Source of the DNA: a virus
Length of the DNA: 51,506 nt
Reading direction: 5' to 3' (one strand)
Virus genome (UHGV): UHGV-0335272
Every line of letters starts with the position of its first letter. Positions within the stretch are counted from its first letter, which is position 1. A program made the translations under genes and the position numbers. The notes under the pieces were generated by a model. That model was not told the origin of the DNA. It saw only the letters and a list, made by a program, of their open reading frames with translations, and searched no databases. Shown here piece by piece: positions 48,585-50,361 of the stretch.

Positions 48585-48881
48585 ATGAAGAAAGCAGATA
48601 GCCTCCATCTTTCGCGTGTGGCCGCACTGGGCTGCATCGTGTGCAGAAATCAGAACCTGGGCGAAACGCCCGCGGAAATTCACCATATCCGAACCGGTCA
48701 TGGCACAAGCCAGCGCGCTGACCATCGGAAATCAATTCCCCTGTGCCATATGCATCATCGCAACGGCGGTTATGGTGTGGCGATTCATGCTGGCCGCCGC
48801 GCCTGGGAAATGAAGCACGGCACCGAAGCAGAGCTGCTGGTGCAGGTGCTCTATTTACTGGGAGAGCCTGCCAATGAATAA
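48585..48881 (+). CDS. Ref-like HNH-type protein (recombination enhancement function family candidate)
   Basis: CIVCR ... EIHHIRTGHG ... CHMHHRNG motif pattern. Confidence 0.5.
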   Translation: MKKADSLHLSRVAALGCIVCRNQNLGETPAEIHHIRTGHGTSQRADHRKSIPLCHMHHRNGGYGVAIHAGRRAWEMKHGTEAELLVQVLYLLGEPANE

Positions 48882-50361
48882 GCCAGTCAGTTACGGCTCA
48901 GTGTGCAGCGGCATCGAGGCCGCCAGCGTGGCATGGCATTGCCTGGGCTGGCAGCCAGCATGGTTCGCTGAGATAGAAAAATTCCCCTCTGCTGTTCTGG
49001 CGTACCGCTGGCCGGACGTCAGTAACCTGGGCGACATGACCAAAATCGCTGCGGCAATCCGTGCCGGAAAAATCGACGCGCCCGATGTGCTGGTGGGGGG
49101 AACCCCTTGCCAGGCGTTCAGCGTTGCGGGCTTACGTAATGGGCTGGCTGACGAACGCGGCCAGTTAACTTTGGCTTTTGTGGAACTGGTTAATGCTACC
49201 GATGAAAAACGCAGAGAACAGGGAAAATCACCTGTCATCGTCGTCTGGGAAAACGTCCCAGGCGTATTCAGCAGCAAAGATAACGCTTTCGGATGTTTTC
49301 TTGCAGGGCTTGCCGGCGAAAGCTGCGCGCTGGAATCACCAGGGAAGCGATGGTCAAACGCTGGTTATGTGCTGGGACCAGAAAGAGCTATTGCCTGGCG
49401 AGTGCTCGACGCTCAATTTTTCGGAGTGGCCCAACGACGCAGACGTGTGTTTGTTGTCGCAACAGCTCGAGGGGATATCGATCCCGCAAAAATTCTTTTT
49501 GAGTCCGAAGGCCTGCGCCGGAATTCTCCGCCGGGCAGAGAAAAGGCGAAGGCAGTTGCCGCGCTTACTTCAAACGGCGTTGGAGTATGTGGTGCAGACG
49601 ACAACCAGGCACAAGCCGGACATCTGATCCCGGAGTGCGTGACCGGGGATATCAGCCACACCCTGAAAGCAGAAGGTTTCGATGGTAGCGAGGACGGTAC
49701 AGGAAGAGGTACGCCGATTATCGCGATGGCGCACGGGCAGGGTGGTGCTGAAATTAAAACCGATAATACAGCGCCTACGCTGACCTGTAACCACGAAGCT
49801 CCGATCGTTTTCAGTAGCAACGGGCATGCATCTTTCGCACCCGGCGTTGGAGCACTTCGGGCTAAGTCGGGCGCTGATCAAGAAAAGCTTGCGATACACG
49901 GAACGCAGGACCCTGACACATTGAAAGACCTGGCTCATACGCTGGGGCGGAATCACGGGCAGGAAAATGCTGTAGTTTATGCCTTCAAGGCTGGACAGGG
50001 CGCAAAAGCTGGTGGCATTGGGTGGGCAGAGGAACAATCCCCAACACTGACGGCCGCCAGCAGTGGATCAAATTTAGTCTCCTCAGTGATGAAGAATATG
50101 GCCGTTCGCCGCCTGACTCCTGTCGAGTGCGAGCGCCTGCAGGGGTTCCCTGATAACCACACCCTAATCCCTACGGAGAAGCGTAAGCAGATCACCGCTG
50201 ATGAATACGCGTATCTGCGCCACCACCGGCCAGAACTGACTGCAGAGCAGGCGTTCCGCCTGGCCGCCGATGGTCCGCGCTATAAAGCGATCGGCAATTC
50301 AATGGCTGTGCCGGTTATGCGCTGGATTGGCTCACGCATACAGGAGGCGCTGCGTGCCTAA
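48874..50361 (+). CDS. DNA cytosine-5 methyltransferase (orphan)
   Basis: Motifs YGSVCSGIEAAS (I), GGTPCQAFS (IV, PCQ), ENV (VI), QRRRRVF (VIII), KAIGNSM (X). Confidence 0.85.
   Translation: MNKPVSYGSVCSGIEAASVAWHCLGWQPAWFAEIEKFPSAVLAYRWPDVSNLGDMTKIAAAIRAGKIDAPDVLVGGTPCQAFSVAGLRNGLADERGQLTLAFVELVNATDEKRREQGKSPVIVVWENVPGVFSSKDNAFGCFLAGLAGESCALESPGKRWSNAGYVLGPERAIAWRVLDAQFFGVAQRRRRVFVVATARGDIDPAKILFESEGLRRNSPPGREKAKAVAALTSNGVGVCGADDNQAQAGHLIPECVTGDISHTLKAEGFDGSEDGTGRGTPIIAMAHGQGGAEIKTDNTAPTLTCNHEAPIVFSSNGHASFAPGVGALRAKSGADQEKLAIHGTQDPDTLKDLAHTLGRNHGQENAVVYAFKAGQGAKAGGIGWAEEQSPTLTAASSGSNLVSSVMKNMAVRRLTPVECERLQGFPDNHTLIPTEKRKQITADEYAYLRHHRPELTAEQAFRLAADGPRYKAIGNSMAVPVMRWIGSRIQEALRA

Follow-up and report, generated by a model that had tools for sequence, protein, structure and literature searches.

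Both genes considered here have relatives in bacteriophage P1, namely the Ref (recombination enhancement) nuclease and the DNA methyltransferase Dmt. The basic N-terminal region of P1 Ref is required for the protein to bind DNA and to cleave it efficiently (PMC4330346). An N-terminal NinB/Orf-like domain is found in full-length DUF968 proteins, among them Gp16 of phage phiNM1 (PMC4118853, PMC12817073). Gp16, whose N-terminal domain is NinB-like, is RecA-dependent, and versions truncated at either the N- or the C-terminus do not retain RecA binding (PMC12817073). RusA has already been noted as a neighbour of the prophage-encoded DUF968/DUF1364 His-Me finger proteins (PMC5714182), and a "Trojan horse" role in self-protection has been reviewed for phage methyltransferases (PMC12707154). 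We analyzed virus genome UHGV-0335272, a stretch of 51,506 nucleotides (nt) referred to here as the window, in which a Ref-like protein of 98 amino acids (aa) and a C5-cytosine DNA methyltransferase are encoded by overlapping genes. Both open reading frames (ORFs) lie where a sequence-only reading of the window had put them, and they share 8 nt, ATGAATAA. Other copies of the prophage run on into lysis and terminase genes. The locus therefore belongs to a lambdoid prophage that is integrated beside phoPQ, and represents its nin (early-lytic, replication-to-Q) region.

Our best explanation of the locus as a whole, which we regard as probable, is a nin-region backbone with an inserted P1 Dmt-type methyltransferase that is made lytically and protects phage DNA. 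The backbone would comprise a terminator, a LexA box, a UmuD'-like (or DinI) gene, a small ORF, the Ref-like HNH core, RusA and Q (Table 1). We surveyed the 80 closest IMG/VR loci, in which the Ref-like protein is 70–100% identical to that of the window. The next gene encodes RusA in 51 of these loci, a C5 methyltransferase in 14, a Dam-type N6-adenine methyltransferase in 14 and Q in one; the Dam-type arrangement is also found in the nin region of a Klebsiella phage. For three Ref-like proteins (from Enterobacter, Citrobacter and E. coli), RusA follows in 12 of 12 places (truncated in two), mostly with the two genes overlapping and with Q coming next. Among 80 species-representative loci encoding relatives of the window methyltransferase, the Ref-like gene is directly upstream in only three. 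These counts indicate that Ref-like and RusA are the conserved unit and that the methyltransferase is a facultative, interchangeable insert.

The insertion was mapped at the DNA level against L083, an Enterobacter hormaechei prophage that lacks the methyltransferase. Homology to L083 ends at 48866 and restarts at 50355. At this point L083 has a Ref/RusA overlap junction, ATGCCTAA, and the window has in its place a 5' junction, ATGAATAA, and a 3' junction, GTGCCTAA, where rusA begins with a GTG start codon in an 8-nt overlap with the methyltransferase stop. Since the insertion maps to the Ref/RusA overlap, the 8 nt shared by the Ref-like and methyltransferase genes are what a cassette left behind when it entered a gene pair that already overlapped. 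Ref-like and RusA genes normally overlap by 8 nt, the P1 Dmt-type gene has entered exactly at that overlap, and an overlap of 8 nt is rebuilt at both ends, so that translational coupling would be preserved. The sequence-only reading had implied a functional link between the Ref-like protein and the methyltransferase. This link does not hold, as RusA is the conserved partner; the adjacency has no functional meaning and the pairing is incidental.

The overlap invites a different explanation, in which the two proteins make up a restriction-modification or toxin-antidote system, with the HNH protein as the cognate endonuclease restrained by methylation and the overlap reflecting co-regulation. Several type II restriction enzymes contain HNH domains (PMC5714182), the two genes are co-oriented and overlapping, and some methyltransferase directly follows the Ref-like gene in 28 of the 80 closest loci. 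However, 51 of the same 80 loci have a Ref-like gene with no methyltransferase next to it, and 77 of the 80 methyltransferase loci have no adjacent Ref-like gene. The methyltransferase can be C5 or N6-adenine, and a sequence-matched endonuclease could not tolerate such an exchange. The recognition region of the methyltransferase is highly variable, while the Ref-like protein is 93–100% identical, and a length of 98 aa leaves no space for a DNA-recognition domain. The interchange of C5 and N6-adenine enzymes in the slot, together with a fast-changing recognition region beside a near-constant Ref-like protein, argues against a cognate endonuclease. No PADLOC restriction endonuclease (REase) model matched the Ref-like protein or the other neighbours, and in the full prophage context replication genes precede the two genes, and those for RusA, Q, lysis and terminase follow them. 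On the co-occurrence counts and the missing REase match we rejected the restriction-modification pair, which we consider highly improbable. For the intact methyltransferase no cognate endonuclease could be detected, in agreement with the sequence-only reading.

We then consider the two proteins separately, beginning with the methyltransferase. It matches PF00145 with 132.4 bits (cut-off 22) and TIGR00675 with 126.2 bits (cut-off 100.65), and Enterobacter homologues that are 97–98% identical are annotated as DNA cytosine methyltransferases. Motifs IV (PCQ), VI (ENV), VIII (QRRRR, i.e. QxRxR), IX and X (GNS) can be read in the sequence, as can RRLTPVECERLQGFP. The earlier description of "all canonical motifs" was a slight overstatement: PCQ, ENV, QRRRR and GNS are present, but motif I is a variant. 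It reads VCSGIEAAS instead of FxGxG, with the second glycine replaced by glutamate, which counts against our explanation of the locus. The variant (CSGIE) is conserved family-wide, P1 Dmt included. Identity to the C5 domain of P1 Dmt is 49% over 99% of the length (E 8e-159), and the P1 Dmt record itself grades its C5 activity only as "perhaps". The window enzyme ends after motif X and its only Pfam match is PF00145, so it has no Dam-domain fusion; some of its close homologues are Dam fusions, as is P1 Dmt. Codon differences in the core are mostly synonymous (e.g. 13 synonymous versus 2 nonsynonymous, or 37 versus 4), suggesting that the catalytic core is under purifying selection and that the protein is probably an active enzyme. 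The AlphaFold model of the core, made from a 68-sequence alignment, is of moderate confidence.

An insertion of about 35 aa (EKRKQITADEYAYLRHHRPELTAEQAFRLAADG; 50150–50290, aa 434–466) lies between motifs IX and X of the methyltransferase. Two helices are predicted for it with moderate confidence. It is specific to the family, kept in P1 Dmt and absent from M.HhaI. Separately, a CRISPR spacer in type I-F arrays of three E. coli chicken isolates (MS1170, MS1266 and VTB97074v) matches 49396–49428 with 100% identity. The spacer is apparently 33 nt long and its target is inside the methyltransferase gene, in the motif VIII region. Phages with this methyltransferase family have been sampled by E. 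coli CRISPR adaptation.

The feature of wider interest, and the sole notable lead from two otherwise ordinary genes in already-named families, is the stretch that separates motif VIII from motif IX. Homologues at 56–98% overall identity are 416–848 aa long, and outside the Dam fusions this length variation is confined to the motif VIII–IX region (138–357 aa). The region resolves into approximately 14 recurring units, most of which have a TL-type core; examples are HTLKAEG, PTLTCNH, HTLGRNHG, PTLRAGNS, PCLTATDHHG, TLTARHDSS, TVKARDHKD and PTLTSANSG. Approximately 100 unit architectures, with collinear order, occur among 183 homologues. TL motifs number 3.16 per protein compared to 0.22 in shuffled sequence, an enrichment of about 14-fold. 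A regression of region length on TL count (about 20 aa per motif, r 0.6) was dropped because it is confounded by motifs that the regular expression misses.

The window enzyme has four strict TL units (HTLKA, PTLTC, HTLGR and PTLTA) and one degenerate unit (ALRAK). Enzymes in the same context (Ref-like, methyltransferase, RusA) carry the unit sets ABCFGK (window), DEFGHK, ABCF, DEFGHIJ and DEGHIK, and their cores are 93–99% (N-core) and 91–100% (C-core) identical to those of the window enzyme. The N-core of the L101-type allele (DEFGHK) differs from the window at only two residues. Breaks in DNA homology fall at the edges of the region; that with L101, L119 and L120 lies at 49542/49543, where the region starts. 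Unit K is missing as a clean in-frame indel in the near-identical relative L103. Single units recur at 60–80% identity in enzymes of Mycobacterium, Pseudomonas and Sinorhizobium phages and in those of some P1 isolates. On these comparisons, TL-motif units come, go and are exchanged between enzymes whose cores are near-identical, which makes the recognition region a mosaic. In the window it is a tandem set of four or five small TL units that recombine as cassettes between otherwise near-identical enzymes.

This organization resembles that of the multispecific C5 enzymes of Bacillus phages, which we measured together with E. coli Dcm in the same way as the window enzyme. The motif VIII–IX spacer is 217 aa in the window enzyme, with its four strict and one degenerate TL units; 212 aa in SPR, with three; 276 aa in rho11s and H2, with four; and 118 aa in the monospecific Dcm, with one. 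TL units are 30–48 aa apart in the Bacillus-phage enzymes and 35–54 aa apart in the window enzyme. By this analogy the window methyltransferase may recognise more than one target sequence, which we put at an even chance at best. We hold with similar reserve, and slightly short of even, the broader proposal that the P1 Dmt-type C5 methyltransferases of proteobacterial phages and prophages, possibly including P1's own, are a large undescribed multispecific family whose exchangeable target-recognising units are reshuffled against host restriction.

Several results weigh against multispecificity. Some units are only 24–30 aa long, below the spacing of the Bacillus-phage enzymes; specificities may therefore be fewer than units, and a single one is conceivable. 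The similarity of units to Bacillus-phage target-recognition domains (TRDs) is marginal (best E 0.006 by BLAST in a three-sequence search space), and BLAST of the variable region against the Dcm TRD gave insignificant similarity. Residues 212–433 of the AlphaFold model have a pLDDT of about 25, with no confident structure. A PDB sequence search with a nine-unit variable region returned chance matches only. We did not count homology of the units to the Bacillus-phage or Dcm TRDs, the resemblance being at motif level only. The window enzyme thus appears to be built like the multispecific enzymes. Given the marginal unit similarity and the uninformative model, its membership of that group by descent is not established and multispecificity stays an inference.

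The same evidence bears on another account, in which the enzyme is monospecific or merely relaxed and the extra TL units are spacers or decayed relics left by neutral shuffling of a loop-rich region. The very low predicted confidence of the variable region fits this account, as do the short or degenerate units (such as ALRAK in the window) and the absence of significant similarity to any TRD of known specificity in the PDB sequence search and the Dcm comparison. The Bacillus enzymes, moreover, include inactive pseudo-domains. However, the TL core stays intact in the units, at about 14-fold above shuffled sequence. Individual units are also 60–80% identical across very distant phage hosts, and neutral spacers would not be expected to be so conserved. 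The indels are clean, in frame and unit-sized, and in both spacer length and unit spacing the window enzyme equals enzymes proven multispecific by experiment. We consider the monospecific account to have a real but smaller chance of being correct, and multispecificity remains our preferred reading.

A literature search of limited coverage returned no description of multi-TRD Dmt-type enzymes in enterobacterial phages, which is weak evidence of novelty. Routine PacBio methylomes detect 5-methylcytosine poorly (PMC8936443), so Dmt-type enzymes could easily be overlooked.

The 98-aa protein matches the Pfam family PF16786 (RecA_dep_nuc) with 45.5 bits (cut-off 26.9) and the C-terminal HNH part of DUF968 with 33 bits; an NCBIfam profile scan gave no match. 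Its sequence matches P1 Ref (3PLW) at E 0.007, with 29% identity over the core, and Enterobacter homologues that are 85–97% identical carry the NCBI name "Ref family recombination enhancement nuclease". An AlphaFold model built from 45 homologues (pLDDT 82) has a His-Me finger (beta-beta-alpha-metal) fold like that of the P1 Ref core. In a Foldseek search of the PDB, 3PLW was the sole significant match (E ≤ 0.001), with E 1.7e-4 and a TM-score of 0.69, and was followed by other HNH proteins with non-significant E values. E. coli YbcO (3G27), whose gene lies directly upstream of rusA in DLP12, as the Ref-like gene does here, was not among the 33 PDB matches listed at E ≤ 10. Residues C17, H33, C54, H57, H58 and H68 are invariant in an alignment that includes P1 Ref. 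H68 is the equivalent of the P1 Ref active-site H153, and the zinc-ligand cysteines are also kept. By profile, fold and active site, the protein is a member of the Ref family, as the sequence-only reading had suggested from the Cys/His pattern.

While family membership is clear, the protein begins at about residue 80 of P1 Ref, the start of the globular core, and two absences caution against transferring function. It lacks the approximately 76-aa basic, unstructured N-terminal region of P1 Ref, and it lacks the NinB-like domain of the DUF968 protein Gp16; that is, it is without the accessory region that every characterised relative adds to the HNH core. Since P1 Ref needs its N-terminal region, Ref-like activity or RecA dependence cannot be assumed for a core-only protein, and the "Ref" label overstates what such a protein may be taken to do. 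The protein may be weak, partner-dependent or of another function. It would be a zinc-bearing His-Me finger nuclease core, probably acting on recombination or replication intermediates with a partner. Because Ref-like/RusA coupling is invariant, RusA would be the obvious candidate. Any functional partner would thus be sought in the recombination machinery (RusA, RecA filaments) and not in the methyltransferase.

The genes upstream of the Ref-like gene point to SOS control. The UmuD'-like protein (MGFLSPAADY...) begins where the product of UmuD cleavage begins. The sequence-only reading had called this gene HumD-like and, with the Ref-like and methyltransferase genes, had proposed a P1-like accessory set. 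The UmuD-like assignment stands (PHROG 3469), as do the P1 affinities of the methyltransferase (49% to the C5 domain of P1 Dmt) and of the small protein (P1 Ref core). The HumD-like gene falls out of the set: the protein scores 21.1 bits against the NCBIfam HumD model (NF051876; cut-off 120), with only the N-terminal 17 residues matched, and its homologues are in lambdoid Klebsiella and Enterobacter phages, with no P1 match among those listed. Directly upstream, CTGTATAAATATACAG is the only zero-mismatch LexA box match in the window. Of 70 related loci, 55 have a perfect CTGTN8ACAG 700–1100 nt 5' of the Ref-like gene, while only one has it in an equal downstream stretch. Citrobacter relatives have dinI in place of the UmuD'-like gene. 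With the conserved LexA box and the dinI replacement, the nin-region module (UmuD' or DinI, Ref-like, RusA) looks SOS-controlled and RecA-themed. No strong plus-strand terminator was predicted between 47880 and 51410, that is, before Q, so transcription started by SOS may run on through the genes for the Ref-like protein, the methyltransferase and RusA.

The position of the methyltransferase gene between the replication genes and Q suggests that the enzyme is made in lytic growth and methylates replicating phage DNA, and that progeny would thereby escape restriction in the next host; the unrelated Dam-type enzymes in the same slot of sister phages are consistent with such self-protection. Against this, expression timing is deduced from gene order alone. 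The SOS signals could also mean that the methyltransferase is mainly an epigenetic regulator in the lysogen, switched by SOS through the LexA promoter 0.9 kb upstream, with anti-restriction secondary. The perfect LexA box, conserved in 55 of 70 related loci, and the lack of a predicted strong plus-strand terminator in 47880–51410 agree with this, as does the presence of the exact methyltransferase protein in many assemblies (148 index blocks). However, a facultative slot with Dam-type interchange is more in keeping with a protective accessory than with a wired regulator, and fast turnover of the recognition region is hard to square with fixed regulatory targets. As SOS also induces the prophage, SOS and lytic expression coincide. 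We consider a mainly epigenetic role unlikely and favour lytic self-protection.

The sequence-only reading had further proposed two phage-borne methylation activities in the lysogen, the second from a Dam-like enzyme of another prophage in the window. The Dam-like gene is real: a D12-class N6-adenine methyltransferase is encoded at 23082–23852, at the edge of the first prophage (PF02086, E 3e-27; PADLOC MTase_II, E 5e-114), near a CI-type repressor gene (24464–24874). Two activities in the lysogen are doubtful, since the C5 methyltransferase gene is in an early lytic (nin) operon; it would be expected to be silent in the lysogen unless the upstream SOS promoter reads through.

Table 1. Features of the lambdoid prophage and its nin region, in window coordinates.
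Feature	Coordinates	Strand	Details
phoQ and phoP	34971–37109		
Integrase	37180–38469		After phoPQ
Replication genes	43530–45190		
Intrinsic-terminator-like hairpin	47595–47614	+	AAACCCGCTTCGGCGGGTTT then T run; strong; ends preceding transcription unit
Perfect LexA (SOS) box	47689–47704	strandless	CTGTATAAATATACAG; 23 nt 5' of UmuD'-like start codon
UmuD'-like protein	47727–48050	+	107 aa; PHROG 3469 "UmuD-like", E 5e-46
ORF, function not assigned	48222–48440	+	72 aa; PHROG 22673, E 1e-50; no Pfam match
Ref-like His-Me/HNH nuclease, catalytic core only	48585–48881	+	98 aa; ATG start
Solitary C5-cytosine DNA methyltransferase, P1 Dmt type	48874–50361	+	495 aa
Variable (target-recognition) region of methyltransferase	49540–50097	+	aa 223–408; TL units
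Unit K of variable region	49974–50096	+	41 aa, aa 368–408; YAFKAGQG...SPTLTAASSGSN...; in-frame indel compared to L103
RusA Holliday-junction resolvase	50354–50710	+	PF05866, E 6.7e-15; PHROG 140; junction comparison
Q-like late-gene antiterminator	50707–51309	+	PHROG 753, E 3.7e-65
Terminator-like hairpin 3' of Q	51410–51444	+	Position of lambda tR'

The gene order is UmuD'-like, 72-aa ORF, Ref-like, methyltransferase, RusA, Q-like and hairpin (Table 1). Between the replication genes and the hairpin at 47595–47614 are DUF1627 and DUF977 genes and a 173-aa ORF without assigned function. A promoter-like site (TTCTCA-17-TATAAT, 10 of 12 matches) is found at 48427–48455, in the 144-nt gap 5' of the Ref-like gene; sites of this kind are no more numerous in the region than chance would give. 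An Rfam scan of the whole window gave no matches.

Three other observations concern possible accessory genes. A 634-aa ORF on the minus strand (38969–40873) adjoins the integrase and has no Pfam or PADLOC match; the spot beside a prophage integrase is typical for a moron or defence gene. In the same prophage, about 1.5 kb past the window end, a 276-aa ORF (L182:10024–10854; PHROG 3630) is located between Q and the holin gene, with no match to PADLOC, to defence or nuclease models or to a functional PHROG. It was found once without the methyltransferase, in loci too short for proper co-occurrence analysis. The Q-to-holin gap is the site of Shiga-toxin genes in Stx phages, a late-operon moron position. 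Finally, L083:5013–7847, in the closest prophage without the inserted methyltransferase, encodes a different, 346-aa C5 methyltransferase and an AAA_15/AAA_21 ATPase on the opposite strand, directly after Q. These two genes may be a defence pair in a moron position.

If each unit of the recognition region corresponds to one target, the natural variants would be a ready swap set for the C5 methyltransferase recognition code, and a single gene could carry temperate Enterobacteriaceae phages past many type II systems. If the family-wide proposal is true, the Dmt-type enzymes would parallel the four or five classical ones of Bacillus phages, with far greater diversity. The Ref-like core and RusA behind an SOS-controlled UmuD'/DinI gene form a common prophage module that would be tractable for core-only Ref-like nucleases. 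The locus also carries a caution, as gene overlap in mosaic phage regions is a poor guide to function.

Compared to known systems, the Ref-like protein has in common with P1 Ref the Pfam family PF16786, the predicted fold, the zinc cysteines and the active-site histidine, but P1 Ref is 186 aa long with its N-terminal region, the window protein is 98 aa long without it, and core identity is 29%. The Ref-like gene, moreover, sits in a nin region and is coupled to rusA. The prophage DUF968/DUF1364 His-Me finger proteins (E. coli YbcO and YdfU, and S. aureus phage phiNM1 Gp16) resemble it in the matched HNH part of DUF968 and in their RusA neighbourhood (PMC5714182); Gp16, however, is full length with a NinB/Orf-like domain, whereas the window protein is the HNH part alone. 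Dam-type nin-region methyltransferases of lambdoid phages are likewise solitary and occupy the same slot as the window methyltransferase, between Ref-like/RusA and Q, but they are N6-adenine enzymes of an unrelated fold class with no modular recognition region.

P1 Dmt is very similar to the window enzyme in the catalytic core blocks and has several TL units of its own, although these are another set, and it is a 754-aa protein with a C-terminal Dam domain, whereas the window enzyme stands alone. The Bacillus-phage enzymes M.SPRI, M.Rho11sI and M.H2I are, like the window enzyme, solitary phage enzymes with an enlarged motif VIII–IX region, tandem TL units 30–50 aa apart whose number differs among sister enzymes, and a presumed role in self-protection (PMC12707154). 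They differ in that sequence similarity beyond the generic C5 core is marginal, in having far fewer unit architectures than the approximately 100 of the Dmt-type family, and in host, which is Bacillus for these enzymes and Proteobacteria (with related units in actinophages) for the Dmt-type family.

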